A stretch of 34,859 nucleotides of DNA from Myxococcota bacterium (GTDB lineage Bacteria > Myxococcota_A > UBA796 > CAJQPC01): positions 1 through 34,859 of the forward strand of contig JAZAMN010000046.1 in assembly GCA_036229005.1 (NCBI GenBank). Direction: 5' to 3'. The notes beneath the pieces are model-generated. The model saw nothing but the letters and a program-made list of their open reading frames with translations, had not been told where the DNA came from and made no database searches. The position numbers and the translations under genes were made by a program. This document shows, piece after piece, positions 327 to 31,936 of this stretch (position 1 is its first letter; every line of letters begins with the position of its first letter).

Positions 327-1751
327 TCAGCGAACTCTCGCAACCACCTTGAACTCCACAGCAATCGGGGTCGGGAGCGCCGTGATCGCCACGGTCGTCC
401 GGGTCGCCTGGATGGGCTGGAAGGTGGCCGCGTAGACCTTGTTGTAGCCTTTGAAGTCCCGGTCCATGTCGACCAGGAAGGCCTGGACGTCGACCACGTC
501 CTCCAGGCGGCTGCCGGCGGCCTCCAGGATGACGCGGACGTTGTCGATGACGGCCTGGGTCTGGGCTTCGATGTCGTAGTCCAGAGGGTTGCCGTCAGCG
601 TCCTTGATGGGACCGCCGGGGATGGCGTCGGTGCCGGGCTGACGGGGGCCGACGCCGCTGAGGTACAGCAGGTCTCCGACCCGCCGCGCGTGGGGATAGG
701 CCCCGACGGGCTTGGGCGCGGCCGAGGTGTTCACGGCGGTCTGCGCCCCGGTGTCCTCGCTTGCGGGCGGGGGGGCAGAGGTGCGCGGGGGCTGGGGTTC
801 GGGGCGGTGGGCCCCAGAGTCCGGAGTCGACACAGCGCCCTCCTCCCCCTGGACAGCGACGACGTTGCGGTCGCCGGTGAAGACCTCGACCTCGTCTTCA
901 TCGAACTCCTTGGAGCCGATGCCGCGCTCGACGGGGACCAGGGTGACGACGGCGGCGCCGGTGCCGTACAGAGGCGCGTAGGCATGCACGGTGCCGGCGT
1001 AGTTGTTGTGCTGGCCCATCACGCCGGACAGGAACCACATGGGCTTGAAGTTGACGACCTTCTGCACCCGGATGCGCTGCTGGATGCTGCGGGAGAGCTG
1101 CGCGACGTCCTCCAGGCGCCCCTCGCCCAGGAACTGCAGGAGCTTGCGGTTCCACTCGTCGTCCTTGGTGGAGTGGATGCGGTCCTCGCCCGGCTGGATC
1201 CAGTCGGTGAACAGCCGGTTGGACAGGGTCTGCACGTTGAACACGGCGACCTTGCGACCCTTCATGGCGTCGCGGGCGGCCTTGGCGAGCACGACGGTCT
1301 CAGCGCGGTCGGAGTAGACGTTGGAGCTGACGATGCTCGCCGGGATGCGGTTGTCCCCGTTGAGCAGCTTGAGCGCCACCACGGACCCGGTATCGATGGG
1401 GAAGCCGTGGTAGTCCACCGTGCGCGCCTGGAGCCCGCGGGCCTTGGCGGCGTCGCAGAAGCGCTCGCCGAACTCCTTGTCGATGCGGAAGGAGTAGGGG
1501 ATGGAGCCCAGGCCGTGGAAGAGCTCGTCCACGTGCACCCACTCGGGGTTCTCGCGGGCCTGGATCTGGTGCCCGATCACCGATGGCCACATGGTGCTGT
1601 AGAGCAGCAGGAGGTCGGCGCCGGAGTCGATGATGGCCTGCCGCGCGCGCTCGAAGCCGTTGGCCAGAGAGAGCCACCCCGCGTTGTCGTTGGGGCAGAG
1701 CAGGGGGTGGGGAATGCCGGGGACGATGCCCCCCAGGACGATCTCGCTCAT
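327..1751 (-). CDS. Fusion of 2-aminophenol 1,6-dioxygenase alpha (non-catalytic) subunit and a RidA/YjgF-family 2-aminomuconate deaminase
   Basis: N-terminal LigB-like region resembles AmnA/CnbCa (PGIPHPLL, YSTMWPSVIGH, GFPIDTGSVV) and lacks the beta-subunit Fe ligands. A Pro-rich linker precedes a C-terminal RidA domain (APKPVGAYPHARRVGDLLYLSG...FKGYNKVY...RTTV...VEFK). ATGA overlap with the upstream gene. Confidence 0.85.
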   Translation of the reverse strand: MSEIVLGGIVPGIPHPLLCPNDNAGWLSLANGFERARQAIIDSGADLLLLYSTMWPSVIGHQIQARENPEWVHVDELFHGLGSIPYSFRIDKEFGERFCDAAKARGLQARTVDYHGFPIDTGSVVALKLLNGDNRIPASIVSSNVYSDRAETVVLAKAARDAMKGRKVAVFNVQTLSNRLFTDWIQPGEDRIHSTKDDEWNRKLLQFLGEGRLEDVAQLSRSIQQRIRVQKVVNFKPMWFLSGVMGQHNNYAGTVHAYAPLYGTGAAVVTLVPVERGIGSKEFDEDEVEVFTGDRNVVAVQGEEGAVSTPDSGAHRPEPQPPRTSAPPPASEDTGAQTAVNTSAAPKPVGAYPHARRVGDLLYLSGVGPRQPGTDAIPGGPIKDADGNPLDYDIEAQTQAVIDNVRVILEAAGSRLEDVVDVQAFLVDMDRDFKGYNKVYAATFQPIQATRTTVAITALPTPIAVEFKVVARVR

Positions 1752-3007
1752 GCCTTGTACTCCTGGAAGGCTTCCACCGTCAGAGAGACGGTCTCGCGGA
1801 CGCGTTCGGTGCTGTGCTCGCGCTCGGGGATGCGCCCGATGGCGGCCAGCAGCATCTTCTCGGGCACGCCCTGGCGCAGCGCGGCCTTGATGTCGGGGAG
1901 GAGGTCGGGATCCAGGCCGTGGTCAAAGAGCGTCTTCAACCCCTCGGGCAGGGAGTCCGCGGGGGACTTCCTTGCGCTCCTGCCCGTCGGCGAGGTCCCC
2001 TCGGCGTCCGCTGCGTTGACCAGGTTCCTCAATCCTTCCAGGAGCTTGGCGCCCTGGCCCCCCTCGCGGATCTTCTTGCCGAGCTGCTCGAGCTGGAGGC
2101 TGTCGGCGAACTCCTTGAGGGGCTTGCGCTGGGCCTGGGGATCCAGCCACGCGGCGACGGCGTTGCCGGTGCCGATGACGGTGCCGTAGGCGTAGACCTC
2201 GGCCGGGAAGCTGGGGTAGTCCATGGCCGAGAGCATCCAGGTGAGCGCGCCGGCGTCGGTCTCGGAGATGGCCTGGGTGGTGAACTCGGGCATCAGGTCC
2301 ACGATCTCGCGGGCCTTGCCCTGCCGCATCAGCTCGATGATGCGCATGTCCCAGAGGTACTGGCCGTGGTGGGTGATGTGCTCGCGGCTCATGTCTTCGG
2401 GGATCTCGCCTTCGGTCACAAAGTGTCGGTGGCTGAGGCTGTGCGAGGACACCAGCACCACGCGCTTGTCGCTGGCCTGCAGGACCTCACGGGTGGCGCG
2501 GCCCAGGGCGATGGCCTGCTCCTGCATGACCTCGACGCTGTAGAACGCGGCGTTGCGGCAGCTCGAGAGGGTGACGATGGGGATGTCCCAGGCCGGGTTG
2601 AGCAGGTGTCCGGAGACGATCGTGCCGTAGTCCACGCGGAAGTCGGGGTTCTCCATCAGGGCGGTGACCAGGCCGGCCTCGCGGGCGGCGGTCTCCAGCT
2701 CCCGGGCCAGCTCCACGTCGACCTGGACGTCGTAGCTGTAGCGGAACAGGTTGGGGAACACGGGGTCCACCGACTTGCCCGACAGGCGCGGCACGGCCAG
2801 GAAGTGGGTGCCGATGTAGGTCTGCCAGTGGGGGCTCAGGATGACGATGGCGTCGGGCTGCAGCGCCAGGATGTCCTTGCGCATGCGCTCGTAGCCCCAG
2901 CGCAGGTTCTCCCAGCCGCACTCCGCGCGCGGCTCGTTCTGGGGCGGGTTCTCCGCGTAGACCAGGTGGGGGGGATGGGGCGCCAGGGCGCCGGCGATGA
3001 TGGGCAC
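1748..3007 (-). CDS. amnB: 2-aminophenol 1,6-dioxygenase beta (catalytic) subunit with an extra C-terminal region of about 130 aa
   Basis: Signature PHPPHLVYAENPPQNEPRAECGWE, plus SPHW, VDYGT, SHSLSH and YGTVIGTGNA. Start moved to GTG at 3007, which follows a GGAG RBS; the ORF-track start at 3115 lies inside a hairpin element. Confidence 0.9.
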   Translation of the reverse strand: MPIIAGALAPHPPHLVYAENPPQNEPRAECGWENLRWGYERMRKDILALQPDAIVILSPHWQTYIGTHFLAVPRLSGKSVDPVFPNLFRYSYDVQVDVELARELETAAREAGLVTALMENPDFRVDYGTIVSGHLLNPAWDIPIVTLSSCRNAAFYSVEVMQEQAIALGRATREVLQASDKRVVLVSSHSLSHRHFVTEGEIPEDMSREHITHHGQYLWDMRIIELMRQGKAREIVDLMPEFTTQAISETDAGALTWMLSAMDYPSFPAEVYAYGTVIGTGNAVAAWLDPQAQRKPLKEFADSLQLEQLGKKIREGGQGAKLLEGLRNLVNAADAEGTSPTGRSARKSPADSLPEGLKTLFDHGLDPDLLPDIKAALRQGVPEKMLLAAIGRIPEREHSTERVRETVSLTVEAFQEYKA

Positions 3008-3028
3008 TGGTGAGACTCCGAAGGAGAA

Positions 3029-3204
3029 GTTCCGCCGGCCCGACCTTCCGAAGAGGAGAGTCCGGCGGAACCCGGGCCGTTGTCGGCCCGCGGGGGCCTG
3101 CGCCCTTGGGCGCATTTCCGGGGGAGTCCCCCGGAGAAGAGAATGTAGGTTCGCGGCGTGCGGGAGATGGGGCCCGAAGGGTACCAGGGCCCGCGGGCCG
3201 CGAA
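3029..3204. repeat. Intergenic cluster of five consecutive GC-rich inverted repeats
   Basis: GTTCCGCCGG/CCGGCGGAAC (3029-3071); CGGGCCG-TTGT-CGGCCCG (3073-3090); TGCGCCC-TT-GGGCGCA (3099-3114); TCCGGGGGA-G-TCCCCCGGA (3117-3135); TTCGCGGC/GCCGCGAA (3151-3204). Confidence 0.75.
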
Positions 3205-3205
3205 A

Positions 3206-4663
3206 CTACAGCTGGATGCAGATGTTCTTGGACTCGGAGTAGAACTCAAGGCTCCACCGACCGCCCTCGCGGCCGACGCCCGAGTCTTTGACCCCGCCGA
3301 AGGGCACGCGCAGGTCGCGCTTGAGCCAGGTGTTCACCCAGACCATGCCGACGTGCAGGGCCTCGCTGACGCGGTAGGCGCGCTGCAGGTCCCGGGTCCA
3401 CACGCTGGAGGACAGGCCGTAGCGGGTGCCGTTGGCGGCCTGGATGGCCTCGTCTTCGGAGTCGAAGGGGTGGAGGCTGACCACGGGGCCGAAGATCTCC
3501 TCGGTCGCGCAGCGAGAGTCCACGCCCAGCCCGGCCAGCACGGTGGGCTCGAAGAAGGCGCCCTGATCCAGAGGCGTGGGCAGGCTGGGGATGCCGCCGC
3601 CGCAGAGTACACGTCCGCCCTCTTCGCGGGCCAGCGCCACGTAGCCGGCCACCTTGTCGCGGTGGGCCAGGGAGTTCAGGGCGCCCACGTCGGTGTCGGG
3701 GCTGCGCGGATCCCCCACCTTGAGGGCGGCCACGCGGGCGACCAGCTTCTCTTCAAACTCGGCGTAGATGCTGCGCTCCACCAGGATGCGGCTGCCGCAG
3801 AGGCAGATCTCGCCCTGGTTGGTGAAGGCCGCGCGGGCGGCGCCCTCTACCGCCTTGTCCAGGTCGCAGTCGGCAAACACCAGGGTCGCGTTCTTGCCGC
3901 CAAGCTCCAGGCTCAGCTTCTTGAACATGGGGGCCGCGGTGCGGGCCACGTGGGTGCCGGTGGCGGTCCCGCCGGTGAAGGAGATCAGCTTGACCTCGGG
4001 GTGCTCGACCAGCGCCTGGCCGGCCTCAGCCCCAAGCCCATGCACCACGTTGAACACGCCGTCGGGCAGCCCGGCCTCCTTGGTGATGCAGGCCAGCACG
4101 CTGGCGGTCAGCGGGGCCAGCTCCGAGGGCTTGGCGACGATGGTGTTGCCCATCGCCAGCGCGGGCGCGAGCTTCCAGGACAGCAGGTAGAGGGGCAGGT
4201 TCCAGGGGGTGATGAGCCCGCAGACCCCCACCGGGCTGCGGTGGGTGGTGTTCAGCGCGTCCGCCATGCGGTGCGAGGGCAGCTCCTGGTGGCGCACGGC
4301 CCCGGCGAAGAAGCGGAAGTTCGCGACCACGCGGGGGATGTCGATGCGGCGGGCCAGCGAGACGGGCTTGCCCTGATCTGCGCTCTCGACCTGGGCCAGC
4401 AGCTCCAGGTGCTGCTCCACCTTGTCGGCGATGTTGTCCAGGATGTCGGCGCGCTGCTCGAAGGACATGGCGGCCCATGCCGGCGCGGCGCGCTTGGCGG
4501 CGGTCACGGCCAGGTTGACCTCGGCTGGGCCAGATCGCGGCATGTCGACGAGCTTCTCGGATGTCGCGGGGTTGAGCTTCTCCATGAAGGAGGAGGGGAT
4601 CTCCTTCCTCCCGTCGATCCAGTTGGACCGCCCGCACATGATGGCTTCGAGGAGATCTCTCAA
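3206..4663 (-). CDS. Aldehyde dehydrogenase, 2-aminomuconic (or 2-hydroxymuconic) 6-semialdehyde dehydrogenase type
   Basis: ALDH motifs ITPWNLPLYLLSWK, KPSE, SFTGG, LELGGKN, NQGEICLCGSR (catalytic Cys), EEIFGPV and RDLRVPFGGVK, typical of the HMSDH/ALDH8 clade. Start is TTG 4663 (overlapping the upstream stop) or ATG 4639. Confidence 0.9.
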   Translation of the reverse strand: MRDLLEAIMCGRSNWIDGRKEIPSSFMEKLNPATSEKLVDMPRSGPAEVNLAVTAAKRAAPAWAAMSFEQRADILDNIADKVEQHLELLAQVESADQGKPVSLARRIDIPRVVANFRFFAGAVRHQELPSHRMADALNTTHRSPVGVCGLITPWNLPLYLLSWKLAPALAMGNTIVAKPSELAPLTASVLACITKEAGLPDGVFNVVHGLGAEAGQALVEHPEVKLISFTGGTATGTHVARTAAPMFKKLSLELGGKNATLVFADCDLDKAVEGAARAAFTNQGEICLCGSRILVERSIYAEFEEKLVARVAALKVGDPRSPDTDVGALNSLAHRDKVAGYVALAREEGGRVLCGGGIPSLPTPLDQGAFFEPTVLAGLGVDSRCATEEIFGPVVSLHPFDSEDEAIQAANGTRYGLSSSVWTRDLQRAYRVSEALHVGMVWVNTWLKRDLRVPFGGVKDSGVGREGGRWSLEFYSESKNICIQL

Positions 4664-5802
4664 GGCTGCTCCCAGTCGGCGAGGTACTGCTGGGTGTCAT
4701 AGACCCAGCGCTCCTGGTCGGGATCCCACTCGTCCCAGGTGGGCACCTGCTCCAGCTTGGGGACGTCGCGCTCGGGCACGATGCCGGGGACCAGGAAGGC
4801 CTTCTGCCGGTGCAGCGCGGAGGGGTTCCGGAGCTCGATGCCGAGCACGCCCAGGATGCCGCGGGCGACGTACCAGGTGGCCTGGGAGTTCCAGCCGTGG
4901 GCGATCTTGATGACCACGCCCAGGCCCTGGGGGTAGTCGGGGTGCTCGATGGCCATGCCCAGCAGACCGTCCGCGCCCTCCTTGGCGATCACGCGCCCGG
5001 CGCCGGCCTTGATGACGCTGGAGTCCAGGCGGTCGAAGCCGCCGACCAGGTCGGGGTGGCGGGTCATGGCCTCCCAGATCCAGTCGTCGTCCTTCTGCTG
5101 GACCAGGCCGGCGTAGAGGCGGGCGAGCTCGTTGACGGTGTTGGAGACGGTGGGCAGACCGCAGCCGTCCTTGGCGATGCGCAGGGGCTTCCAGTCGTCG
5201 CCCAGGTGCCTCCGGAGCTGCCCCAGGTAGGCCTGGAACGCGGGGTGCATGGGGAGGGTGTAGCCCACGCGGCGCCAGCCCTTGGCTTTGCAGCCGGCCA
5301 GGATGGCGGCGTGCTCCCCGGAGCAGGTGTGGTACCAGCGGCGAGCGCGTCGAACCTGGCGTCCAAACTGCACAAGCGGCACGTCCAGAGGCGTCTGCAT
5401 CAGGCCCCACTCGGCGGGGGCCAGCAAGGACTGTGCGGTGGCGACGTGCTCGGTGTCGCCGTTGTGGGAGGCCACGGAGATGGCCTTCTGCTCCCAGCTC
5501 CGGTCCGCCAGGTCCTGGGCGAACACCTTCATCATGAAGGGCTTCATCATGGAGCGGCCGTAGCAGAGCACGTTGCCGCCGAAGCTGTGGATGATGCGGT
5601 TGCCGTGGGCCCAGGCGACGGCGCCGTGGATGGTGGTCTCGCTCACGCCGTTGCGGCGGTAGTCGACCAGGGGCTCCCAGTCGACCTCCCGACCGGTCGG
5701 GATGCCGCGCTCCTGCTCGCCCAGAGGAGAGCGGGGGTACATGGCGGAGCCCGGGCGGCCCGGAGCGACCGCGCTGGGCGGGGTGTGCTTGTCGGCGCTC
5801 AC
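4660..5802 (-). CDS. L-asparaginase II (Rhizobium-type, class 3) family protein with altered motifs
   Basis: RSMMKP (RSxxKP), ASHNG, TCSGEH (canonical NCSGKH), DGCGLP and AKEGADG. Start set at GTG 5802 (GTGA overlap with the upstream stop). Confidence 0.8.
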   Translation of the reverse strand: MSADKHTPPSAVAPGRPGSAMYPRSPLGEQERGIPTGREVDWEPLVDYRRNGVSETTIHGAVAWAHGNRIIHSFGGNVLCYGRSMMKPFMMKVFAQDLADRSWEQKAISVASHNGDTEHVATAQSLLAPAEWGLMQTPLDVPLVQFGRQVRRARRWYHTCSGEHAAILAGCKAKGWRRVGYTLPMHPAFQAYLGQLRRHLGDDWKPLRIAKDGCGLPTVSNTVNELARLYAGLVQQKDDDWIWEAMTRHPDLVGGFDRLDSSVIKAGAGRVIAKEGADGLLGMAIEHPDYPQGLGVVIKIAHGWNSQATWYVARGILGVLGIELRNPSALHRQKAFLVPGIVPERDVPKLEQVPTWDEWDPDQERWVYDTQQYLADWEQP

Positions 5803-7037
5803 TGCTCGCCCTCCACCAGGGGCACCACGCGCTCCATGAAGTGGGTCATGTTGTCGATCACGCGGTCGCAGTCGTGGTTGAAGAAGTCGAACCACAGCAT
5901 CAGGCGGTCGTCGGGGTGGAAGCGCTCGCGGATCTGCGCGGCGACCTCCTGGGCGTTGCCGATCAGCGCGTTGTCGGCGGCCTGCTCCACCCGGCTGGGG
6001 TCGATGGTGCCCTGCAGGGCCTTCCAGTAGGCGCCCAGAGCCTCTCGGGCCTCGCGGTGGGCGGCCTCACTGCGCTCGGTGGGGCTCAGGCCGGGCTGCT
6101 CGTTCAGGAACACGAACACCGTGCGCGGCATGTAGGCGCGCTGCCAGGGGCCACCGTCGGGGTGGTAGTTGGCGGCCATGCGCTGGTGGGTGTCCTCGAT
6201 GACCTCGGGGCGGGTGATCGACAGGTTGAAGACCTGAACCGGGGCCCACTGGTTGAGCTGCTCCTGGAGCTTGGGGTCGTGGCTGCCCACGATGCGCACC
6301 AGCAGCTCGCGGCGCCAGGACTGGGGGATGATCTTGAGCACCTCGAAGTCCCAGCGGTTGGCGAAGGTGATGCTCTCGGTGTCGACCTCCTCCTCCAGCT
6401 CTTCAGAAAGGGCGTCAAGCACCTTCTGCCAGTCGGCGTCCGAGCGGAAGTTGTCCCGAGACAGGGTGGTGTCGCCCACGTCCGTGCTCGCCAGGGTCTC
6501 CCCATTGAGCAGCCGCAGGAAGATCTCGGCGGCCTCCGCGAACACCTTGCCGCGCAGGGCTGGCCAGGCCGCGGCCTCGACCTCATCGCGGGGGACGATG
6601 CCGCTGGCGCGGTTCATGAACTGGAAGCGCCCGCCCGAGAAGCCGATGTGCAGGCGCCGGGACTCCTGGGGGTCCAGTCCGTGCTGGAGCAGGAAGCTGG
6701 CCACGCGCTCCGCCGCTGCCACCGGGCCGCCCATGCAGACGATGTTCATGATGGCGGTGCCCACCTCGATTCTCTCGGTGCGGGCGAAGATGCGGGCCGC
6801 CAGGTCCAGGGCGTTGACGTTGAGCCCGACCTCGCCCTCCCAGTGGGGGATGACCGGGTGGTCGTGGGCCTTCTGCACCTCGGAGCTCAGGTGGGACTCG
6901 GCCAGCCAGGCAACGCCAAAACCAAGCTTGTCCGCCGATTCCACCTGTCGGTAGAAGCTTCGGAACATCTGCTGCTCGCTGGGCAGCTTGCCGTCCACTG
7001 GGGTCTGGCTGATGGAGAAGAAGATGTCGTAGCGCAT
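5799..7037 (-). CDS. LLM-class (luciferase-like) flavin-dependent monooxygenase
   Basis: N-terminal MRYDIFF...ADKLGFGVAWLAESH, TERIEVGTAI, PVAAAERVA, RLHIGFSGG and C-terminal LIGNAQEVAAQI fit the luciferase TIM barrel. ATG 7037 follows AAAGGA. Confidence 0.85.
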   Translation of the reverse strand: MRYDIFFSISQTPVDGKLPSEQQMFRSFYRQVESADKLGFGVAWLAESHLSSEVQKAHDHPVIPHWEGEVGLNVNALDLAARIFARTERIEVGTAIMNIVCMGGPVAAAERVASFLLQHGLDPQESRRLHIGFSGGRFQFMNRASGIVPRDEVEAAAWPALRGKVFAEAAEIFLRLLNGETLASTDVGDTTLSRDNFRSDADWQKVLDALSEELEEEVDTESITFANRWDFEVLKIIPQSWRRELLVRIVGSHDPKLQEQLNQWAPVQVFNLSITRPEVIEDTHQRMAANYHPDGGPWQRAYMPRTVFVFLNEQPGLSPTERSEAAHREAREALGAYWKALQGTIDPSRVEQAADNALIGNAQEVAAQIRERFHPDDRLMLWFDFFNHDCDRVIDNMTHFMERVVPLVEGEQ

Positions 7038-7059
7038 GGCCCGTCCTTTGCGGCGCATC

Positions 7060-7854
7060 TTAGCGCCCGACCCAGAGCAGGTCCGTCCAGAGCTCGGACT
7101 CCAGCAGCGGCCCGTCTTCCACAAAGAGGCTCTGGGCGTCGGGGTCCCCGCTCAGCTCTGCCCGCATCCACGCGGTCGCCAGGCCGCGGTGCCCGCCCCC
7201 GTCGCCGCCCATCTCCAGGTGTCCAGCCCCTCGGAGGTGCGCCACCAGCCCGGTTCCGCTGGTGCTCTCCAGCCACTCGTGGTTCTTCCGGGTCGGGGAG
7301 ATGATGTTGTCCCGGGCCCCAGACTGGATGAAGAGCCGGGTGTCGATCTCCGAGGGCTCCAGGGTGTCCTCTTCGCTCCAGAGGGAGGGCTTGGGGAGTG
7401 CGTTGGCCAGCACAGTGTCGATGTCCACCTCCTGGCCTTGGGTGAGCAGGTGCGCGTTCAAGGAGCTGCCGGCCCCTTGCGAGGTCCCCATGGCGCCGAC
7501 CCGCGAGAAGTCCGCCTGGAACGCCCCGGCGTCGGCTTCGAGCTGGGCCGACTCCAAGAGCGCGGCGGCGCGCTCCCCGGTGCCCATCTGCTCGTCATCA
7601 CAGGCCAGCACCACAAAGCCCCAGGAGGCCAGGTGCTCCAGCAGCTCTTGGTACTGCTCCGCGCGTGTGCCCGAGCCGTTGGAGAAGAGGATGACCGGGG
7701 CGGGATCCTCCGCGTCGGGGACATACGCGTACGCGGCGAGCCCATCGTCCAGCGCCCACTCCCAGGAGGAGAACGCGTGGGGGCCCGGCGCAGCGTGCAC
7801 CGCCTCCAGATCCAGGGGGGCGCGGCCGCAGGCCAACAAGGCGAAGAGGGTCAT
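7060..7854 (-). CDS. Alpha/beta hydrolase (chlorophyllase/cutinase-like), probable lipoprotein
   Basis: PVILFSNG, HLASWGFVV, nucleophile elbow GTSQG, GARD and GAGH give a Ser-Asp-His triad. ATG 7854 follows GGAGG; N-terminus is MTLFALLAC. Confidence 0.75.
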   Translation of the reverse strand: MTLFALLACGRAPLDLEAVHAAPGPHAFSSWEWALDDGLAAYAYVPDAEDPAPVILFSNGSGTRAEQYQELLEHLASWGFVVLACDDEQMGTGERAAALLESAQLEADAGAFQADFSRVGAMGTSQGAGSSLNAHLLTQGQEVDIDTVLANALPKPSLWSEEDTLEPSEIDTRLFIQSGARDNIISPTRKNHEWLESTSGTGLVAHLRGAGHLEMGGDGGGHRGLATAWMRAELSGDPDAQSLFVEDGPLLESELWTDLLWVGR

Positions 7855-7907
7855 CGGGGCCTCCGTGCTCGGGGTTGGGGCCCCGGACGCCCGAGGCCGT
7901 CGATCGT

Positions 7908-8669
7908 TCAGATGCCTCGGAGCCGTCCGCCATCGACCGGCAGGCTCACGCCCCGGATGTAGGCGCCGGCCGGAGAGCACAGGAAGGCGATCGCGCCGGC
8001 GGTCTCCTGGGGCTGGGCCAGGCGGCCCTCGGGGACCTGGGCCAGCCAGGCGGCGTGGACGTCCGACTCCTGGACGCCGGTGCGCGCGGCGCGGCCCGCC
8101 TTGAGGGAGCTGAGGCGCTCGGTGTCGGTGAAGCCCGGCAGCACGTTGTTGATGGTGATGCCCGGGGGCAGCTCGCGGGACAGGGACTTGGCCCAGCCGG
8201 CCATCGCCGCGCGGATGGTGTTCGAGACCCCCAGGTTGGGGATGGGCTCCCGCACAGACGTGGACAACACGTTGACGATTCGCCCGAAGCCGGCAGCCTC
8301 CATGTGGGGCAGGCAGGCCTGGGTGAGCTGGTGGGCGGCCAGCACGTGGCGGTGGAACGCGGCCCGGAGCGCCTCGGCCGGGGCCTGGGTCAGGGGGCCG
8401 CCCTTGGGGCCGCCGGTGTTGTTGATCAAGATGTGGACGGGCGCCAGCTCGGAGACCGCAGCCAGCAGCGTCTCGTGCTGGTCCAGGTCGGCGACGACGA
8501 AGCCGTGACCGCTGCCCGGGAGCTCGGCGACCAGGGCCTCCAGGCGCTCCTGTCGGCGGGCGAGGGCGGTGACCTTGGCGCCCATCTCGGCCAGGGCGAT
8601 GGCGGTGGCGCGGCCGATTCCGGCGCTGGCGCCGCAGACCAGGGCGTGGCGCCCAGAGAGTGGTGACAT
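7908..8669 (-). CDS. SDR-family NAD(P)-dependent oxidoreductase, atypical (SNTIR in place of YxxxK)
   Basis: CGASAGIG Rossmann motif, ILINNTGGP, NNVLPG and VDGG. ATG 8669 follows AGGAGG. Confidence 0.85.
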   Translation of the reverse strand: MSPLSGRHALVCGASAGIGRATAIALAEMGAKVTALARRQERLEALVAELPGSGHGFVVADLDQHETLLAAVSELAPVHILINNTGGPKGGPLTQAPAEALRAAFHRHVLAAHQLTQACLPHMEAAGFGRIVNVLSTSVREPIPNLGVSNTIRAAMAGWAKSLSRELPPGITINNVLPGFTDTERLSSLKAGRAARTGVQESDVHAAWLAQVPEGRLAQPQETAGAIAFLCSPAGAYIRGVSLPVDGGRLRGI

Positions 8670-8714
8670 GCAGACCTCCTGGGGCATCGCTTATAGCTGC
8701 AGCCTGGAGGCGTC

Positions 8715-9275
8715 ATGGGCTTTCGAGACAAGCTGCGGGCAAAGGTGGACAAGCACGGTGGGCTGGGCGGTCTGGCCAAGGCCGCCATCCGTCGGGCCGA
8801 TCCCCGGGCCAAGGGGACGGACAGCGCCCCGGTGACCTCGCCGGCGGGACAGAGCGCAGAGAAGGGGAGCCTCCCCACGGAGTGCAGCGTGGTGGGGTTC
8901 ACCGCTGTCGCGTGGTCCGATGCCCTCACCCCCTCCCGTCCCTTGCAGATCGTTCACGAGGGGGAGGCGATCGCGGTGTTTCGCGCTCAGGGGTCCACCT
9001 ACGCAATCTCGAACGTGTGCACCCACGAGGACGGGCCGCTTGCCGAAGGCGAGGTCAACGGTTGTGTGGTGGCGTGCCCCTACCATGACTGGCGCTTTGA
9101 CATGCAGACCGGGGAGTGCCTGAGCCACAAGGGCCGGCAGGTGGCCACTTGGCAGGTGCGCGAAGAGCAGGGGGCGGTGTGGATCGGCCCCCAGAAGAGC
9201 GAAGGCGCCGCCGAGCGCGGGGGCGCGCACGACGACGGGATGGAGGTCCTGGTCAAGGATCTCGACCAGGAGTAG
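8715..9275 (+). CDS. Rieske [2Fe-2S] ferredoxin with an N-terminal extension
   Basis: Rieske ligand motifs CTHEDG and CPYHDWRFD; GGAGG RBS before the ATG. Confidence 0.85.
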   Translation: MGFRDKLRAKVDKHGGLGGLAKAAIRRADPRAKGTDSAPVTSPAGQSAEKGSLPTECSVVGFTAVAWSDALTPSRPLQIVHEGEAIAVFRAQGSTYAISNVCTHEDGPLAEGEVNGCVVACPYHDWRFDMQTGECLSHKGRQVATWQVREEQGAVWIGPQKSEGAAERGGAHDDGMEVLVKDLDQE

Positions 9276-9289
9276 GGCCCCAGAGCGAG

Positions 9290-9317
9290 AGCGCCCCAGC
9301 CCGGAGGCTGAGGCGCT
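9290..9317. terminator. Hairpin between convergent genes, possible terminator or stabiliser (no U-tract)
   Basis: AGCGCCCCAGCC-CGGA-GGCTGAGGCGCT. It is fully paired on the minus strand with one G-U pair. Confidence 0.35.
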
Positions 9318-9338
9318 GGAGTCCCGGACCCAGGGGTC

Positions 9339-11078
9339 TCAGACCTGGAACTCGTCGACCCGCTGCTGCAGGCGGTTGGCGAGCTCGGCCAGGCTCTGTC
9401 CTGCCTTGGCCGTCTCCGCCGCGCCGGAGCTGGTGGAGTCGGAGATGGAGCGGATGCCCTCGACCTGGTTGGCCACGTTGCGCCCCAGCTCGCGCTGACG
9501 GCTGGCCTCCTGGGAGATGCCCCCGGTGACCTCGGCGATGCGCTCGACCCCGGAGAGGATGTCCTTGAAGGCCTCGCGGATGTCCTGAGCGCCCTTGCCC
9601 GTGGCGTCGGCCTGGACGCGGGTGGTCTCGATGGCGCGGCTGACCTCCTGGCTGCGCTCGCCCAGCTCCTGGATGAGCTGCTGGATTCGCTTGGTGCTCT
9701 CCTGGGTCTGCAGGGAGAGGGAGCGCACCTCGGCGGCGACCACCGCGAATCCCTGACCGGCGGCGCCGGCGCGCGCAGCCTCGGCCGCGGCGTTGAGGGC
9801 CAGCAGGTTGGTCTCCTGGGCGATGCCCCCGATGAGGTCGACGATCTTGGCGATCTCACCCACCTGGGTGTTCAGCCGGCCGACGGCCTCACCGGTGACG
9901 CCGACCTGGTTGGTCAGGCTGTTGACGCCGGTGATGGCGGCCTCGACCTCGCGGGAGCCCTTCTGGGCGGCCAGGTTGGCGCTGCCAGCGGCCCGGGCGG
10001 CCTCGGAGGCGCGGTCGGCCATGGACTCGGAGGCCTGGAGGAGCTGCTCGATGCTCTGCTTGGCCTGGACGGTGGCCTGCTGCTGACGGCGGACGCCGGA
10101 GCTGGTGGACTCGGTGACCCCCGCGAGCTGCTCGGCGGAGGCAGCGACCTCCATGGAGGCCTGGACGACCTGGCCGGTGAAGCCCTGCATGTCCCGGGTG
10201 AAGCCGTTGAACGCCCCGGACAGCAGCACCAGCTCGGCGGCGCCCTCTTCGGGGAGACGGACGCGCAGGTCCTTGTCCTTGCCGGCCTCGGCCATGGTGG
10301 AGGCCGCCTGGTTGATGGGCTTGGACACGTAGCGCTGGAGCACCCAGTGGATGAGCACCAGGGCGGCGAGCAGGCCGACCAGGCCAGCGATCACGCCCTT
10401 GATGATGTTGGTCTTGATGACCGCGTAGGCGGCGTCCAGGGGGCGGATGACCTCGAAGGCGCCGTGGAGATCGCCGACCTCCTTGTCGTCCATGTCGAAG
10501 CCGGCGATGTCGATGCCGTCCTTGTTGCCCCAGAGGTCCTCGCTGGTCGCGGGGTCACCGTGGCAGGCCATGCAGGACTCGGACAGGCGCACCGGGCGGA
10601 AGTAGCGCACGGCGTTCATGTCCTCGTCGATCGTGTACCACTCGATCGCGTCGGGGTTCTGCTCGAAGTACTGCAGCGCCTCGGACTCGAGGGGATCCGG
10701 CTCGTTCTTGGGGTTGCGGGCGCCCTCACGGGGGGTGCGGAAGGTGAACCCGCCCTCCTCGGACTTGGCCTTGGCGGACTCCCAGGCGGCCACGACCGGA
10801 ACCGCGGCCAAGATGCGCTCCTTGGCCTGCTTCTTGGGCATGGTCTCGGCGTACTCCCGCAGGTCTGCAGGCGTGAACAGACCGAGCGCCCACTTGGTCT
10901 CCATGTTGTCCCGCACCGACTCGGCCATGAGCACTGTGGTTCGGGCCGAGGCCACCTCGGCGTCGATGCGCGCGTTCTTCTCCTCCCAGGCGCGGCTGGC
11001 CACCAGCGCGCTGACCAGGAGGGCGATGAGCGCGGCGATTGGGACGCCGGCGCGGATTCCGATGCTGTCGCGGGTCAT
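9339..11078 (-). CDS. Methyl-accepting chemotaxis protein with a periplasmic heme-c (Tll0287/DUF3365-like) sensor domain
   Basis: Two TM helices, [13 protein letters not shown] heme motif (10560-10574), HAMP domain, and MCP signature [20 protein letters not shown]...[10 protein letters not shown]. Confidence 0.9.
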
Positions 11079-11126
11079 GTGGACTCCCAGGCACCCGAAT
11101 GACAGATTTCGGGCGTTCTGGAAGCC

Positions 11127-12233
11127 TCATCGGCTGAGCGGTCCCTCCCTGAAGGCATAAAAGTCCGGATCCGACAGCTCCGGCAGCGCGCGGCGGGGGC
11201 TCAACACGGAGCGAACCGCCCACAGCTCTGGGAAGACGCGGTATGTGGTGGTCTTGTCCAGGTAGGAGACGCCGGCGGATCCGCCCGTGCCCACCCGCCG
11301 ACCGATCAGGCGCTCCACCATGCGGGCGTGGCGGTGGCGCCAGAGCACGAGCTGCTCTTCGAGCTCCACGACGGTGTCCAGGAGCAGGCGAGGCCAGGCC
11401 AACAGGGGCAGCTCGCGGTAGCTCTCCACAAAGAGCAGCGCGGCCCGGATCCGGCGGATGCGCTCGGGGTTCTCCTGGACGTCGCGGGCCATCAGGAAGT
11501 CCTCGGTGGCCTGGCTCACCTTGGCGAAGCGCTCGCGGACGCCCTCGGGGTCCTCGCTGAGGCCTGCCAGCCGCTCAGCCTGCTGCTCGCGGGCCTCCTT
11601 CCCGTGGTGCAGGTAGTCCTGGAGGAAGGCCTTCACAGCCTCCTCGTCCCCGGGATCGCCGGGCTGGCTGCCCTGGATCGGGGTCCGGTAGAGCCAGCGG
11701 TGCAGGGCCTCCCGCAGTGAGGTCTCGCTGCGCGCCTGCTCGATGCGCCCCCACGCGAGCGCGCCCCCGGGGCTGGTCTCGGCCAGCTTGCGGATGTGGG
11801 TGAGGGGATCGGAGCCGCCGTAGCGCAGGCGCTGGGCCTCCTCCAGGCCCAGGAGGATCTCCAGCTCGCGCATCTGGAAGCTCTGGAAGCCCGAGCTGGG
11901 CACCAGCTTGTCCCGGAAGTCCAGGAAGTCCAGAGGGGTGAGGGTCTCCATGACCTTCATCTGGTCCACGGCCAGGCGCAGGATCTCGTTGACGCGGCCC
12001 AGGTGGTGCACGACGGAGGGCACGGCCTTCTCGGGGAGCGTGGGCGCGGCGAGCTGATCGCGGGCCAACCGCACCTGGGAGAGCACCAGCTTGAACCACA
12101 GCTCGTAGGCCTGGTGCACGATGATGAAGTGCAGCTCGTCGGGGCCGACCTGGTCGCCCAGGCCCTGCTGGCTGTCCAGGAGCTGCGGGAGGGCCAGGTA
12201 GTCCCAGTAGGTGGGGGTGCTCGACTCGGACAC
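11127..12233 (-). CDS. kynA: Tryptophan 2,3-dioxygenase (long form)
   Basis: TYWDYL, DELHFIIVHQAYELWFK, SSGFQSFQMRELE and WRHRHARMVERLIGRRVGTGGSAGVSYL. GTG start follows GAGGAG. Confidence 0.93.
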   Translation of the reverse strand: MSESSTPTYWDYLALPQLLDSQQGLGDQVGPDELHFIIVHQAYELWFKLVLSQVRLARDQLAAPTLPEKAVPSVVHHLGRVNEILRLAVDQMKVMETLTPLDFLDFRDKLVPSSGFQSFQMRELEILLGLEEAQRLRYGGSDPLTHIRKLAETSPGGALAWGRIEQARSETSLREALHRWLYRTPIQGSQPGDPGDEEAVKAFLQDYLHHGKEAREQQAERLAGLSEDPEGVRERFAKVSQATEDFLMARDVQENPERIRRIRAALLFVESYRELPLLAWPRLLLDTVVELEEQLVLWRHRHARMVERLIGRRVGTGGSAGVSYLDKTTTYRVFPELWAVRSVLSPRRALPELSDPDFYAFREGPLSR

Positions 12234-12296: not shown

Positions 12297-14174
12297 GTGA
12301 GCAGTATGCCCCTGGACGTGCTCGAGCGTTTTGGAGCGGCCACCAGCCGCGTGTTCGTCGGTGAGTCCCAGCAGGAGCGCAGCGGCGCCGGCGGTGCCCT
12401 GGAGGCCAGCGTGGAGCGCTTGGGTCTGGGGATGTTGGGCGGGGTGTTCCACGCCCATGCCGATCTGCACCGCCTGGAGCTGGAGGACCCCGACGTCCGG
12501 ATCGACGCTGTTCGCGCAGACGAGGTCATCGAGGTGCAGGTCCAGTGGGAGAGCGGCACCGCGTTCACCGAGCGCCTGCCCATCGCGCCCGTGGCGGGCC
12601 TGCTGCCCCACGACGGCGCCTTCCTGGTCCCCCAGGCCGACTCCCGCCACCCGGACCTCCGGGCCGCCCTGCGCTCCGGCGCGGGCTTCTGGCTCTGTGA
12701 GAGCGGCGACGGACTGCGGGCCTTCGGCGCGGGTCGGGTCTCCTCGGCGGAGGGGGCCCTGCCGGTCCTCGGGCGCCTGCCTGAGCGCGGCCAGCTCGGC
12801 TCCGCCGCCTTCTGCGCGCACATGGGCATCCGCCACGCCTACCTGGGCGGCGCCATGGCCGGCGGGATCGCCTCGGCCGCCATGGTCATCGCGCTGGGCC
12901 GCGCCGGCCTGATGGGCTTCTTCGGGGCCGGCGGCCTGGGGCTGGACGCCACCGAGCAGGCCCTGGCCGAGATCCGGGACGCCCTCACGGACGGTCAGGC
13001 CTACGGCGCCAACCTGCTCCACAACCCCCAGGAGCCGGCGGTCGAGATGGCCACCGTGGAGCTCTACGCCCGCTACGGCGTGCGGACCATCAGTGCGTCG
13101 GCCTTCATGGGGCTGACCCCCGCGCTGCTGCGCCACCGCTACACCGGCATCGCGCTGGTGGACGGCAAGCCCGTGTGCCCCAACCGGGTGATCGCCAAGA
13201 TCTCCCGCCCCGAGGTCGCCAAGCACTTCCTGAGCCCGCCCCCGGAGGCCGCGCTCCAGGAGCTGGTGGACGCCGGGCACCTGAGCGCCGAGCAGGCCGA
13301 GTGGGCCCTGCAGCTCCCCGTCGCCGACGCGATCACCTGCGAGGCCGACAGCGGCGGGCACACCGACCGCCGCCCGCTGCCGGTGCTGGTCCCAATCATC
13401 CTGCAGCAGCGCGCGCAGATCGCCGCCGAGCAGGGCTACGCCGAGCGCGGCATCCACATCTTCGTGGGCGCGGCCGGCGGGCTGGGCTCCCCCGAGTCCA
13501 TCGTGGGCGCGCTGGCCATGGGCGCGGAGTACGTGCTCACGGGCAGCGTGAACCAGGCCACCCCGGAGGCCGGCACCTCGGACATCGCCAAGGAGATGCT
13601 CCTGGAGGCCGGCATGGCCGACTGCGCCGAGGGCCCCGCCCCGGACATGTTCGAGCTGGGGGCCCACGTCCAGGTGCTCTCTCGCGGGACCATGTACGCC
13701 CGCCGCGGCAAGCGCCTGTACGACCTCTACAAGCAGTACAGTAGCTGGGAGGAGATCCCGGCCGCCGACCAGAAGAAGGTCGAGAAGCAGATCCTGGGCG
13801 CCCCCTTCGCCGAGCGCTGGGAGAGCACCGCCGCCTACTGGCAGGGCCGGGACCCCGCGCAGGTCACCCGCGCCCAGGAGAACGGCCGCCACAAGATGGC
13901 CCTGGTGTTCCGCTGGTACCTGGGCATGGCCAGCCGCTGGGCCCGCCTGGGCGACACCAGCCGCAAGCGGGACTTCCAGATCTGGTGCGGCCCCTCCATG
14001 GGCGCCTTCAACGCGTGGGTCCAGGACACCCCCCTGCAGCCCCTCGCCGCCCGCAAGGTCGCGGACGTGGCCGACGCCCTCATCCAGGGCAGCCTCCAGC
14101 TCCAGGGGGCCCAGGCGCTGGCCGCGCAGGGGGTGGCGGTGCCTGCCGCGCTGTGGGATACGCGGCCGCTGTGA
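12297..14174 (+). CDS. pfaD: PfaD-family FMN-dependent trans-acting enoyl reductase (PUFA/polyketide biosynthesis)
   Basis: GAMAGGIAS, NLLHNP, SASAFM, IAKISRPEVA, EADSGGHTD, GSVNQ, DMFELG and DFQIWCGPSMGAFN. Start is GTG 12297 after GGAGG (or ATG 12306); the ORF-track start at 11796 overlaps kynA. Confidence 0.85.
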   Translation: MSSMPLDVLERFGAATSRVFVGESQQERSGAGGALEASVERLGLGMLGGVFHAHADLHRLELEDPDVRIDAVRADEVIEVQVQWESGTAFTERLPIAPVAGLLPHDGAFLVPQADSRHPDLRAALRSGAGFWLCESGDGLRAFGAGRVSSAEGALPVLGRLPERGQLGSAAFCAHMGIRHAYLGGAMAGGIASAAMVIALGRAGLMGFFGAGGLGLDATEQALAEIRDALTDGQAYGANLLHNPQEPAVEMATVELYARYGVRTISASAFMGLTPALLRHRYTGIALVDGKPVCPNRVIAKISRPEVAKHFLSPPPEAALQELVDAGHLSAEQAEWALQLPVADAITCEADSGGHTDRRPLPVLVPIILQQRAQIAAEQGYAERGIHIFVGAAGGLGSPESIVGALAMGAEYVLTGSVNQATPEAGTSDIAKEMLLEAGMADCAEGPAPDMFELGAHVQVLSRGTMYARRGKRLYDLYKQYSSWEEIPAADQKKVEKQILGAPFAERWESTAAYWQGRDPAQVTRAQENGRHKMALVFRWYLGMASRWARLGDTSRKRDFQIWCGPSMGAFNAWVQDTPLQPLAARKVADVADALIQGSLQLQGAQALAAQGVAVPAALWDTRPL

Positions 14175-24281: not shown

Positions 24282-25871
24282 ATGCAGCCCAGCGCCCTGA
24301 CCTCCCACCTCCGCGGCATCCTCGAACACCAGGGCCAAGGCCTGGTCGATCGGGAGCAGACGCTCGCCCTGAGCCTGCTGGCCGCGCTCGCGGGCCACAA
24401 CGTGCTGCTGCTGGGGCCCCCCGGGACGGCCAAGAGCCTGCTGGCCCGGCGCCTTTCGGGAGCCTTCGCGGACGCGACGCGCTTTGAGTACCTGCTCACG
24501 CGCTTCACCACGCCGGACGAGCTCTTTGGGCCGGTGTCGCTGCGCGCCCTCAAGGAGCGCGACGCCCTGGAGCGCAACACCCAGGGCTACCTGCCGGCGG
24601 CGCAGGTGGTGTTCCTGGACGAGATCTTCAAGGCCGGCTCGGCGATCCTCAACGCCCTGCTGACCCTGCTCAACGAGCGGATCTTCTTCAACGGCGGCAA
24701 GGCCGAGCCCGCGCAGCTCCTGGTCTTGGTGGCCGCCAGCAACGAGGTGCCCCAGGGCGGCGAGCTCCAGGCCCTCTACGACCGCTTCCCCCTGCGCCTG
24801 CTGGTCGAGCCCGTGCGGGGAGAGGCCGCGTTCGAGGCTCTGCTCACCGCCTCCACCGAGCCCGCGCCTCTGCCCGTCGGGAGCCGCCTGCGGGTGGCCG
24901 ATCTGCAGGTCCTGCGCGACGCCCGCGACCAGGTCGGGCTGTCCGCTGGGGCCTTCGCCGTGCTGTCTCGGCTGCGGGAGCGCCTGGGGGAGGGGAGTCC
25001 GGCCGACTGGGAGCGCCGCTATGTCTCCGACCGGCGCTGGCGGCAGATCCTGGCGCTGCTCAAGACCTCGGCCGGGGCCCACGGCGCGCACGAGGTGCAG
25101 GAGGCCGACTGCGGGCTGCTGCGGCACATGCTCTGGAATGACCCCCAGGACGCCGCCGCGATCGGGGAGCTGGTCGACAGCGTGCTCCAGGAGCGGGGGA
25201 TGGACGCCGACCTGGACGCGGGCCCCGTGGGGGTGCGGTGGAAGCAGCTCCTGGGCCAGCTCGCGCTGCACGACTCGGCCCTGGCGCCCCGGGTGCAGGC
25301 CTGGGTGCTCCGGGTGGGGGACCGCGAGCGCCGCTACAGCCCCCAGGAGCTCAGCGCCGCCCAGCAGAACCCCTGGGATCACGTCCTGCGCAGCGAGGGC
25401 CTGTACTGGGACGGGCAGGCCTTCAAGCAGCTCCAGCGCTCGGGCAAGCGGGGCTGGGTCCTGGGTGACTGGGCCTGCTCCAGCCAGGAGATCTGGGACA
25501 AGGTGCTGGGCCACCAGGAGCCGGTGTTCGACGAGACCGTGCGCACCGAGCTGGTCCCCGAGCTGGGCGAGGGCGCCGTGGTGGATCTGAGCCAGATCCC
25601 CGGACCCACCCGCACCCGCTGGCTGGGGGAGCTGGGGGTGATCCACGGCACCCTGGAGGCCCAGGAGCAGCAGCGCCGCGCGCGCCTGAACGCGCTGGAG
25701 GCCCAGCTCGACGAGCACCTGTTCTTGCGACAGGACGACGTGGCCGGCTTGCGCCTGGGGCTGGAGCGCGCGGGGGTGGAGATCGAGACATGGCGCGAGC
25801 GCCTGGCCGAGCTGGAGCAGGCGCTGATGGAGGGTGGCCGCTGGGTCACCTCGGCCCTGCCTGACACATGA
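24282..25871 (+). CDS. MoxR-family AAA+ ATPase, RavA-like
   Basis: Walker A GPPGTAKS; YLLTRFTTPDELFGP; Walker B FLDEIFKA; ASNE; ALYDRF; VSDRRW. Confidence 0.9.
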   Translation: MQPSALTSHLRGILEHQGQGLVDREQTLALSLLAALAGHNVLLLGPPGTAKSLLARRLSGAFADATRFEYLLTRFTTPDELFGPVSLRALKERDALERNTQGYLPAAQVVFLDEIFKAGSAILNALLTLLNERIFFNGGKAEPAQLLVLVAASNEVPQGGELQALYDRFPLRLLVEPVRGEAAFEALLTASTEPAPLPVGSRLRVADLQVLRDARDQVGLSAGAFAVLSRLRERLGEGSPADWERRYVSDRRWRQILALLKTSAGAHGAHEVQEADCGLLRHMLWNDPQDAAAIGELVDSVLQERGMDADLDAGPVGVRWKQLLGQLALHDSALAPRVQAWVLRVGDRERRYSPQELSAAQQNPWDHVLRSEGLYWDGQAFKQLQRSGKRGWVLGDWACSSQEIWDKVLGHQEPVFDETVRTELVPELGEGAVVDLSQIPGPTRTRWLGELGVIHGTLEAQEQQRRARLNALEAQLDEHLFLRQDDVAGLRLGLERAGVEIETWRERLAELEQALMEGGRWVTSALPDT

Positions 25872-29841: not shown

Positions 29842-30906
29842 TCAACGACCCTGGCGGCGCTTCATGACCAGAGCCAGCACCTTGGCGACGGGCTGATACA
29901 GTTCTTCGGGGATGGGGTGGCCCACCTTGCCGTTGGCGTGCAGGGCGCGGGCCAGAGGGCGGTTCTCGACCTGCTGGATGCTGTGGCGGCGGGCCTCGGC
30001 TTTGATCTTCATGGCGATGGCGTCGACGCCCTTGGCCAGGATGATGGGGGCCGGGTACTCTTCGGGTCTGTAGCGGATGGCGACGGCGTAGTGGGTGGGG
30101 TTCGTGATGACCATGTCGGCCTCCTGGACCTTCTGTATGGCCATCTGACCCATGGCGAGCTGCCGGGCGCGGGCGCGGCGCTGGGCCTTGACGTGGGGGT
30201 CGCCGTCGTCCTGCTTGCGCTCGTCCTTGACCTCCTGGGTGGACATCTTCATGTCCTCGTGGTGTTTGTAGTAGTTGTATCCGTAGTCGATGATGCCGAG
30301 CACGATGAGCAGGGGGGCCGCTGACTGGAGCATGCCCACCGCGAGATCCCCCAGGACGGCGAGCTGCTGGCTGGGGTCGAGCTGGGCCATCACGATGAGT
30401 TGACCGGCCTTGTCCCGCATGCCCCACCACACGACGCCGCCCAGGGCACCCAGCTTGAGCAGACCCTTGGTGAGCTCGATGAGCGGCTGTAGGCTCAGGA
30501 ACTTCTGCTTGAGGGCGGGGAGGGGGTTCAAGCGCTCGGGCTTGGGCTCCAGGGCCTTGGTGGCGAGCTGGAAGCGGCTCTGGGCGAAGCCGACGAAGAG
30601 TCCGCCCATGAGTACGGCGCCCAGCACCGGCATCATGGCCATCAGGCCGGAGAGCCCGGCGAAGGCGAAGAGATCCATGAAGTCGCCCGCCGCGGAGCCG
30701 GAGAGCTCGCTGCCCCAGGCCCGGTAGGCGACCGCCCGGAACTGCTGGGCCATCCAGGGCGCGAACGCGAGCAGCGCGCCACCGCCAACCAGGACGACGG
30801 CCGCGGAGCTGATCTCCTGGGAGCGGACGATCTGGCCCTTCTCCGCCGCGTTCCGTAGTTTTCTCTCGGACGCGTCGTGTTGTTTTTCCTGGTCGTCGTC
30901 AGCCAC
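29842..30906 (-). CDS. flhB: Flagellar export substrate-specificity switch FlhB
   Basis: EKGQIVRSQE, TM region, MSTQEVKDERKQDDGDP, NPTH autocleavage motif and ENRPLARAL. Confidence 0.93.
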   Translation of the reverse strand: MADDDQEKQHDASERKLRNAAEKGQIVRSQEISSAAVVLVGGGALLAFAPWMAQQFRAVAYRAWGSELSGSAAGDFMDLFAFAGLSGLMAMMPVLGAVLMGGLFVGFAQSRFQLATKALEPKPERLNPLPALKQKFLSLQPLIELTKGLLKLGALGGVVWWGMRDKAGQLIVMAQLDPSQQLAVLGDLAVGMLQSAAPLLIVLGIIDYGYNYYKHHEDMKMSTQEVKDERKQDDGDPHVKAQRRARARQLAMGQMAIQKVQEADMVITNPTHYAVAIRYRPEEYPAPIILAKGVDAIAMKIKAEARRHSIQQVENRPLARALHANGKVGHPIPEELYQPVAKVLALVMKRRQGR

Positions 30907-31926: not shown

Positions 31927-31936
31927 GGCGGCGTCC

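Follow-up and report, generated by a model that had tools for sequence, protein, structure and literature searches.

Can kynurenine be carried to 2-aminomuconic semialdehyde without kynureninase, the enzyme that textbook tryptophan catabolism by the kynurenine route requires? The question is raised by positions 327 to 12,233 of a 34,859-nucleotide stretch of DNA (the window; contig JAZAMN010000046.1 of the Myxococcota bacterium assembly GCA_036229005.1). Here, the gene for tryptophan 2,3-dioxygenase (KynA), the entry step, is clustered with genes for a luciferase-like flavin monooxygenase (LLM), a class-3 asparaginase homolog (ASN), and both subunits of a 2-aminophenol 1,6-dioxygenase-type enzyme (AmnBA). 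The sequence-only reading of this locus had proposed a new tryptophan route that bypasses kynurenine 3-monooxygenase (KMO), kynureninase (KynU), 3-hydroxyanthranilate dioxygenase (HAD or 3-HAO), and ACMSD. At the pathway level, this claim is strongly supported by the co-occurrence of the genes and by the missing middle enzymes, and the probability that the cluster encodes a new route from kynurenine to 2-aminomuconate in tryptophan catabolism is close to nine in ten.

The genes named in that reading are real, as located by open reading frames and by Pfam and PDB matches, and all cluster enzymes lie on the minus strand. kynA (11127-12233; PF03301, E 1.2e-55) is present as a single copy in the genome. 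The other conserved genes are those of a short-chain dehydrogenase/reductase (SDR; 7908-8669), putatively a 2-oxohex-3-enedioate reductase; LLM (5799-7037; PF00296), the candidate kynurenine oxygenase; ASN (4660-5802; PF06089, E 1e-48), a ReAV-type protein with Lys138 replaced by Glu and putatively a beta-aspartyl hydrolase; an aldehyde dehydrogenase (ALDH; 3206-4663, with an alternative ATG start at 4639) of AmnC/NbaE (2-aminomuconate 6-semialdehyde dehydrogenase) type, with best PDB matches at E 1e-147; and AmnB, the catalytic beta subunit (1748-3007; 3VSG_B, E 7e-108). The RidA-type deaminase of the earlier reading is present, but not as a separate gene: it is the C-terminal domain (∼327-746) of the AmnA alpha subunit (327-1751), with PF02900 and PF01042 in one open reading frame, and represents a 2-aminomuconate deaminase domain of the RidA family. 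Four-base overlaps connect LLM with ASN (GTGA), ASN with ALDH (TTGA), and AmnB with AmnA (ATGA); ALDH and AmnB are spaced 198 nt apart. The G+C content at third codon positions (GC3) of the ten open reading frames is 0.86-0.96.

Co-occurrence of the cluster genes and absence of the classical enzymes

The core set conserved in related bacteria comprises kynA, the SDR, LLM, ASN, the 2-aminomuconic semialdehyde dehydrogenase, and AmnBA/RidA, usually together with kynB. Many relatives of LLM and ASN show 62-86% identity, with sources including Myxococcota, Planctomycetota, Bdellovibrionia, and Poseidoniaceae. Co-occurrence of the LLM and asparaginase genes with amnBA and kynA elsewhere, named in the sequence-only reading as a genomic test, proved to be widespread in GTDB loci, in metagenome loci, and in a sample of 301 genomes. 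A GTDB scan with ASN gave 267 relatives, the best 80 of which were used; 12 of these show the bacterial layout and the rest are of the Marine Group II type, and many of the loci are cut by contig ends. These 80 loci contain ALDH in 76 cases, LLM in 75, the SDR in 63, AmnB in 62, AmnA in 60, RidA in 58, and KynA in 7. An independent metagenome scan anchored on LLM, covering the best 80 of at least 489 loci, found the SDR in 65, ASN in 57, ALDH in 45, AmnB in 30, KynA in 20, and KynB in 8, and KMO, KynU, 3-HAO, or ACMSD in none of the 80. ASN lies directly downstream of LLM in 47 of the 63 metagenome loci with room for it. Among genomes of the Marine Group II order with a completeness of at least 80%, 149 of 151 contain ASN, and an alternative middle section of the pathway is indicated there and, across several phyla, in scattered bacteria.

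Within the phylum, 301 evenly sampled genomes were compared: the ASN subfamily is present in 40 of them, LLM and AmnB in 42 each, and the three together in 38. The exceptions to the three-gene coincidence number six. Three of them (G166, G111, and G186) are contig breaks; in G051, canonical AmnBA stands amid phenol and catechol genes, and G245 has a distant LLM (42% identity) coupled to KMO. The sixth is G171. KynU is encoded in 48 of the 301 genomes but in none of the 44 with any cluster gene, and no match over the cut-off was found in 24 cluster genomes from other phyla. For the remaining enzymes, the sample consisted of 42 cluster genomes of the phylum and the 24 from other phyla, with four archaea added for ACMSD. 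KMO was found in 0 of 66, 3-HAO in 1 of 66 (a divergent and isolated match), and an ACMSD orthologue in 0 of 70; positive controls with the classical route were detected in each of these searches. Tryptophan 2,3-dioxygenase (TDO) is present in 40 of the 42 cluster genomes of the phylum and in 16 of 16 others (56/58). The exclusion pattern recurs in several phyla and in archaea.

In the source genome, which is 94% complete, no KynU, 3-HAO, KynB cyclase, KMO, or ACMSD was found by family search and by tblastn with orthologues from related genomes. The absence of kynB, kmo, kynU, nbaC, and nbaD noted for the window thus extends to the whole 94%-complete genome, and a complete kmo-kynU-nbaCD route, which the earlier reading had named as evidence that would speak against it, was not found; the middle enzymes are missing from the cluster genomes as well. 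Several candidates for these enzymes were rejected: FAD proteins of the source genome as KMO (best 24-28%), an amidohydrolase encoded next to the cluster of G038 and G191 as ACMSD (21% identity), and a class-V aminotransferase after KynB in L038, which is not a kynureninase. An amidohydrolase near ALDH and the SDR in one genus (L189:8256-9071 and L190:2543-3358) has BB4693 as its closest solved relative and is not ACMSD. A role of the cluster as quinolinate supplier is unsupported: nadA is found in 67 of 70 cluster genomes, some with weak matches only, though also in 2 of 3 controls; nadC is found in 68 of 70. With 98 bits, the NadA match of the source genome (G000:C18:63297-64214) is weak like those of several relatives, compared to ∼390 bits in others, and represents a divergent quinolinate synthase type.

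Predicted chemistry of the middle section

The conversion of kynurenine to 2-aminomuconic semialdehyde requires one oxygenation and the loss of a four-carbon amino acid, and two enzymes together with AmnBA would accomplish it. Kynurenine, which is a beta-aspartyl ketone, would be supplied by KynA, assigned by its family, together with a formamidase, which is KynB in most bacterial clusters. LLM, with FMNH2 from an unlinked reductase, would insert oxygen into the bond that joins the ketone to the aryl ring in a Baeyer-Villiger or Dakin reaction, giving 2-aminophenyl beta-aspartate. The zinc/Arg site of ASN would hold the alpha-amino acid end of this substrate, and a beta-aspartyl-Ser intermediate would form, with release of L-aspartate and 2-aminophenol. 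Conservation shows this machinery to be intact; the putative substrate would be either the aryl ester or its O-to-N-shifted anilide. The shift is unnecessary because a hydrolase with a Ser nucleophile could act directly on the aryl ester. By homology, AmnBA would then open the ring of 2-aminophenol to 2-aminomuconic semialdehyde, ALDH would oxidize the semialdehyde, and the fused RidA domain would deaminate the product, which the SDR may reduce to 2-oxoadipate. Electron-rich aryl ketones are known to undergo aryl migration, and the O-to-N acyl shift is likewise precedented, so that this order would need precedented chemistry only, and it would fit the LLM homolog found beside KMO in G245. The Baeyer-Villiger chemistry and the order as proposed are the best guess, with odds somewhat better than even.

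ASN aligns with ReAV and shares its fold. Common to ASN and the class 3 asparaginases ReAV and ReAIV of Rhizobium etli are both Ser-Lys tandems (Ser48-Lys51 and Ser80-Lys263), Arg47, Cys135, Cys189, His139, Tyr156, and Asp187; all of these positions, together with Thr193, are invariant in 230 of 230 ASN members. According to passages of two structural papers (PMC12292245 and PMC11024299), the alpha-amino and carboxyl groups are bound in ReAV by zinc, with Arg47 securing the carboxylate, and the beta-acyl enzyme is formed at Ser48. In contrast to the Cys135/Lys138/Cys189 zinc site of ReAV and ReAIV, ASN keeps both cysteines, but all 230 members have Glu in the place of Lys138, and Asn134 is replaced by Thr, Cys, or Gly. 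In a passage of the latter paper, Lys138 of ReAV is described as strictly conserved, and the K138A variant shows a kcat of 4.8 compared to 416 per s (PMC11024299). The subfamily is 68-86% identical within itself and ∼27-36% identical to ordinary class-3 members, one of which is present in the source genome as a paralogue with the canonical zinc-ligand Lys (G000:C50:105568-106797). Judged by its zinc site, ASN is not an ordinary class-3 asparaginase. Given that none of the eleven positions for catalysis and anchoring varies and that Lys138 is exchanged for Glu, ASN most likely still transfers the beta-aspartyl group, but from an altered substrate. This agrees with the earlier proposal that the asparaginase homolog suits a beta-aspartyl-X substrate, the active-site residues described in part of PMC12292245 being conserved. 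Split clusters, in which ASN stays with LLM or with AmnBA, were rejected as evidence on the order of the reactions, since ASN has the middle position in the common gene order anyway; no case of LLM adjoining AmnBA without ASN was found among them.

No conserved oxygenase other than LLM remains as a source of the phenolic oxygen. The LLM model (pLDDT 91) shows a luciferase-like TIM-barrel fold, with the closest structural matches among luciferase alpha chains (Z ∼30), followed by RslO1 (29.5), diketocamphane monooxygenase (26), and F420 enzymes (24 or less); an F420 ligase was not found in five of five genomes tested. Part of one paper counts luciferases and diketocamphane enzymes among the Baeyer-Villiger monooxygenases (PMC8706424), and a passage of another reports that an LLM performs a Baeyer-Villiger oxidation of an acyclic ketone on progesterone (PMC12239570). 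With the type II Baeyer-Villiger and LLM enzymes (luciferase alpha, diketocamphane monooxygenase, the progesterone LLM, RslO1, and MsnO8), the protein shares the TIM barrel, with Z scores of 26-31 over ∼320 residues; it differs by an identity of 14-22%, with no characterized close relative, and the reaction type is unreadable from the match. One flavin reductase of the source genome (PF01613) is encoded on another contig. Prediction of an LLM-ASN complex gave a score of 0.00, which is no answer and was used neither way. In G245 (86% complete), the distant LLM is translationally coupled to a KMO orthologue (L154:1035-3531; G245:C42), and the ASN subfamily, AmnB, KynU, and TDO were not found in this genome; the pair possibly belongs to a separate kynurenine-derived pathway.

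Of 20 bacterial regions that were fetched and contain AmnBA, 16 encode a KynB cyclase, which in most bacterial loci lies at the far cluster end after RidA. The alpha/beta hydrolase of the window was rejected as formamidase or esterase, with no homolog in 160 related loci. Many archaeal loci contain a BD-FAE hydrolase before the SDR. In Marine Group II, the BD-FAE alpha/beta hydrolase beside the SDR is a candidate non-cyclase kynurenine formamidase (L009:6229-6975, L027:18964-19719, and L057:6351-7106). In two Planctomycetota loci, a cysteine-dioxygenase-like cupin is encoded upstream of kynA (L037:6173-6766 and L036:2460-3077).

The last steps are assigned by homology. The AmnB iron triad His13/His62/Glu251, Tyr129, and His195, residues named in a passage of PMC5291488, are invariant in 87 of 87 cluster sequences. 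Pro14, Pro15, Asp83, Pro84, Phe86, Pro87, His197, Phe198, and Thr282 are invariant both in cluster AmnB and in AmnB of the characterized type, and AmnB of the source genome is 55% identical to CnbCb. Only the closest relatives (63-65% identity) share the C-terminal tail of ∼125 amino acids in AmnB (1748-2122, minus strand), which gave no Pfam match and no usable Atlas match. The best PDB relatives of ALDH are 2-aminomuconate 6-semialdehyde dehydrogenases, with Arg120 and Arg464, presumably substrate-binding positions, conserved in the alignment; the enzyme shares ∼50% identity both with AmnC from xenobiotic clusters and with the ALDH found in a kynU cluster. The RidA domain shows 44-47% identity to its counterparts in two amn-type clusters, compared to 36% with the generic RidA of the genome, and part of a preprint assigns the bacterial 2-aminomuconate deaminase to the RidA family (bioRxiv 10.64898/2026.06.05.730449). 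A homolog of the SDR (39-42% identical) is encoded after kmo in two classical kynU-kmo loci, and neither the AmnE decarboxylase nor the AmnG aldolase was found over the cut-off in any of five genomes; on these grounds, the SDR step is probably a reduction to 2-oxoadipate. The gene for a 2-oxoadipate dioxygenase (HglS) follows the cluster in three loci.

Counterevidence and alternative reactions

A number of observations weigh against this reading. At the pathway level, G171 contains LLM, AmnBA, KynA, and KynB with no ASN-subfamily match, and no KynB or AFMID-like gene was found in the 94%-complete source genome. The KynU exclusion also follows phylogeny: kynU is absent from each of the 58 genomes of the class, 22 of which have no cluster, and when only genomes outside the class are counted, the zero overlap of kynU and cluster has a P of ∼0.26 and is not significant. 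A naive exclusion test (P ∼4e-4) was discarded because kin are not independent. TDO occurs without either route in 10 of 20 cluster-negative genomes. At the level of the reactions, the structural neighbors of LLM, only 14-22% identical, include epoxidizing as well as Baeyer-Villiger-type enzymes, and RslO1, for which an epoxidation is proposed in a passage of PMC8093152, outranks the diketocamphane enzymes (Z 29.5 versus 26). There is no flavin reductase in the cluster. Finally, cluster AmnB has Arg196 adjoining the catalytic His in 87 of 87 and Arg153 in 81 of 87 sequences, and these residues could imply a larger or carboxylated substrate.

This last point leads to the alternative that survives best, in itself unlikely. 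LLM would here be an analog of KMO and form 3-hydroxykynurenine, itself an o-aminophenol; AmnBA would cleave its ring, and ASN would take the place of ACMSD by splitting the beta-aspartyl group off the ring-opened enaminone in a retro-Claisen hydrolysis of a C-C bond. The ends, aspartate and 2-aminomuconic semialdehyde, would be the same, but free 2-aminophenol would never be formed. The co-occurrence data fit this order equally well, and electrophilic oxygenases are among the structural neighbors of LLM. It would also explain the invariant Arg196: position 196 is Trp, Tyr, or Leu in five plasmid-type or catechol-context sequences and in three solved enzymes. Frequent Arg153, Gln64, and Asp253 and a smaller residue at position 156 further distinguish cluster AmnB, and residues 152-156 align with the loop that shields the active site of the ARO enzyme, as described in part of PMC10470539. 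Cluster and xenobiotic AmnB separate on a tree of 52 of 133 beta sequences after thinning, which is a quick tree with the beta-subunit root open; descent of xenobiotic AmnB from the cluster type is not established by it.

On the other side, the iron ligands and neighboring pocket positions are invariant in both AmnB groups, and the AmnB of L049 stands in a full cluster despite a canonical pocket loop and Lys253, with 65% identity to CnbCb. Because L049 keeps the canonical loop, the loop changes appear unneeded for the job of the cluster, and Arg196 is then the only clear change close to the site. The coupling of the G245 LLM (42%) to a true KMO would be odd if both did the same job, although this is one genome and a distant subfamily. 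We know of no C-C hydrolysis by the class-3 asparaginase fold, which counts against the hydroxylating order; if it were true, the novelty would be a fold of this class hydrolyzing a C-C bond.

A variant of the preferred Baeyer-Villiger reading places the oxygenation before deformylation and is improbable. LLM would act on N-formylkynurenine, ASN would split the aryl ester, and the formamidase would convert 2-formamidophenol to 2-aminophenol, with the acyl shift being impossible. Such an order would sidestep the unstable free-amine ester, and it would suit the location of KynB at the far cluster end and the source genome without KynB; gene position, however, says little on reaction order. The two cluster KynB proteins that were scored (216 and 188 bits) come near the arylformamidase (kynurenine formamidase) cut-off of 223, which counts against this order. 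A formylated amine is also less favorable to aryl migration.

Quite improbable is the view that the module degrades another aminoaromatic compound or that LLM is a downstream reductase, with kynA and kynB as mere neighbors. The location of kynA elsewhere in the genome, away from the module, in the Marine Group II genomes examined would agree with it, as would the orphan kynA genes of cluster-negative relatives. By contrast, in several phyla the module has kynA and kynB at its borders, a homolog of the SDR stands in classical kmo-kynU loci, and the 56 of 58 cluster genomes with TDO have no other way onward. The orphan kynA genes (L218-L222 and L225, in G156, G216, G071, G231, G281, and G241) are of the same subfamily at 56-62% identity, and neither cluster nor KynU was found in these genomes.

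A replacement by analogs via 3-hydroxyanthranilate, in which LLM would take the part of KMO, ASN that of kynureninase, and AmnBA that of 3-HAO, is highly improbable: Arg196 could bind the carboxylate and nadC is widespread, but the ACMSD that it requires is missing from all 70 cluster genomes, the distribution of nadA indicates another source of quinolinate, and a Ser acyl-enzyme would free aspartate instead of alanine and an aroyl acid.

Known systems, consequences, and other features of the locus

Compared to the classical kynurenine pathway, the entry (KynA, with KynB in relatives) and the exit (2-aminomuconic semialdehyde dehydrogenase, RidA-type deaminase, and SDR homolog) are shared, while LLM, ASN, and AmnBA stand in the place of the four middle enzymes in the cluster genomes. 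The predicted coproduct is aspartate in contrast to alanine and CO2, and no quinolinate branch is expected. The amn cluster of Pseudomonas AP-3 and the cnb cluster of Comamonas CNB-1 share the AmnB iron triad and second-sphere residues, the LigB-family alpha/beta pair, and homologs of AmnC and RidA. The present clusters differ in their separate AmnB group with Arg196, the frequent fusion of AmnA with RidA, and the linked kynA/kynB, LLM, and ASN, and also in that the lower pathway to pyruvate and acetyl-CoA appears to be missing, the 4-oxalocrotonate decarboxylase (AmnE) and the 4-hydroxy-2-oxovalerate aldolase (AmnG) being those not found over the cut-off in the five genomes tested. For the actinobacterial ARO microcompartment pathway, the natural 2-aminophenol precursor is unknown according to part of PMC10470539. 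Because the main text of that paper contains no mention of tryptophan, asparaginase, or luciferase, the route is not shown to feed ARO loci.

A search of open papers, supplements excluded, found no description of the route. It likely represents a previously undescribed form of kynurenine catabolism in which two enzyme activities are probably new, and a modest balance of probability favors a Dakin/Baeyer-Villiger cleavage of kynurenine by a luciferase fold and an aryl beta-aspartyl hydrolase of asparaginase fold as those two. The two key genes are currently annotated as "asparaginase" and "luciferase." If the route exists as proposed, Marine Group II archaea and many predatory-type bacteria would have it as a core trait, and metabolic models of an abundant uncultured ocean archaeon would have to be revised, with tryptophan leading to aspartate and 2-oxoadipate without quinolinate. 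2-Aminophenol would be a routine natural metabolite of the surface ocean. A dioxygenase family known from nitroaromatic degraders would thereby gain a natural substrate source, in a natural role from which the pollutant-degrading aminophenol dioxygenases may derive, and class-3 asparaginase homologs would act on a substrate other than asparagine.

Comparison with related loci shows three insertions in the cluster that are not among its conserved parts. These are the chlorophyllase-like alpha/beta hydrolase mentioned above (7060-7854, minus strand; weak PF07224), a Rieske ferredoxin (8715-9275, plus strand) present in 3 of 80 related loci, and a methyl-accepting chemotaxis protein (9339-11078, minus strand; PF00015 and PF11845) present in 0 of 80. 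A REP-like repeat of ∼165 nt, itself containing palindromes, occurs in two copies (47-335) at the contig end, immediately past the AmnA-RidA stop. Unrelated to the finding are a PfaD-family enoyl reductase divergent from kynA (12299-14174, plus strand), a MoxR AAA/vWA pair (24282-27241, plus strand), and flagellar export genes (29842-34148, minus strand) elsewhere in the window.

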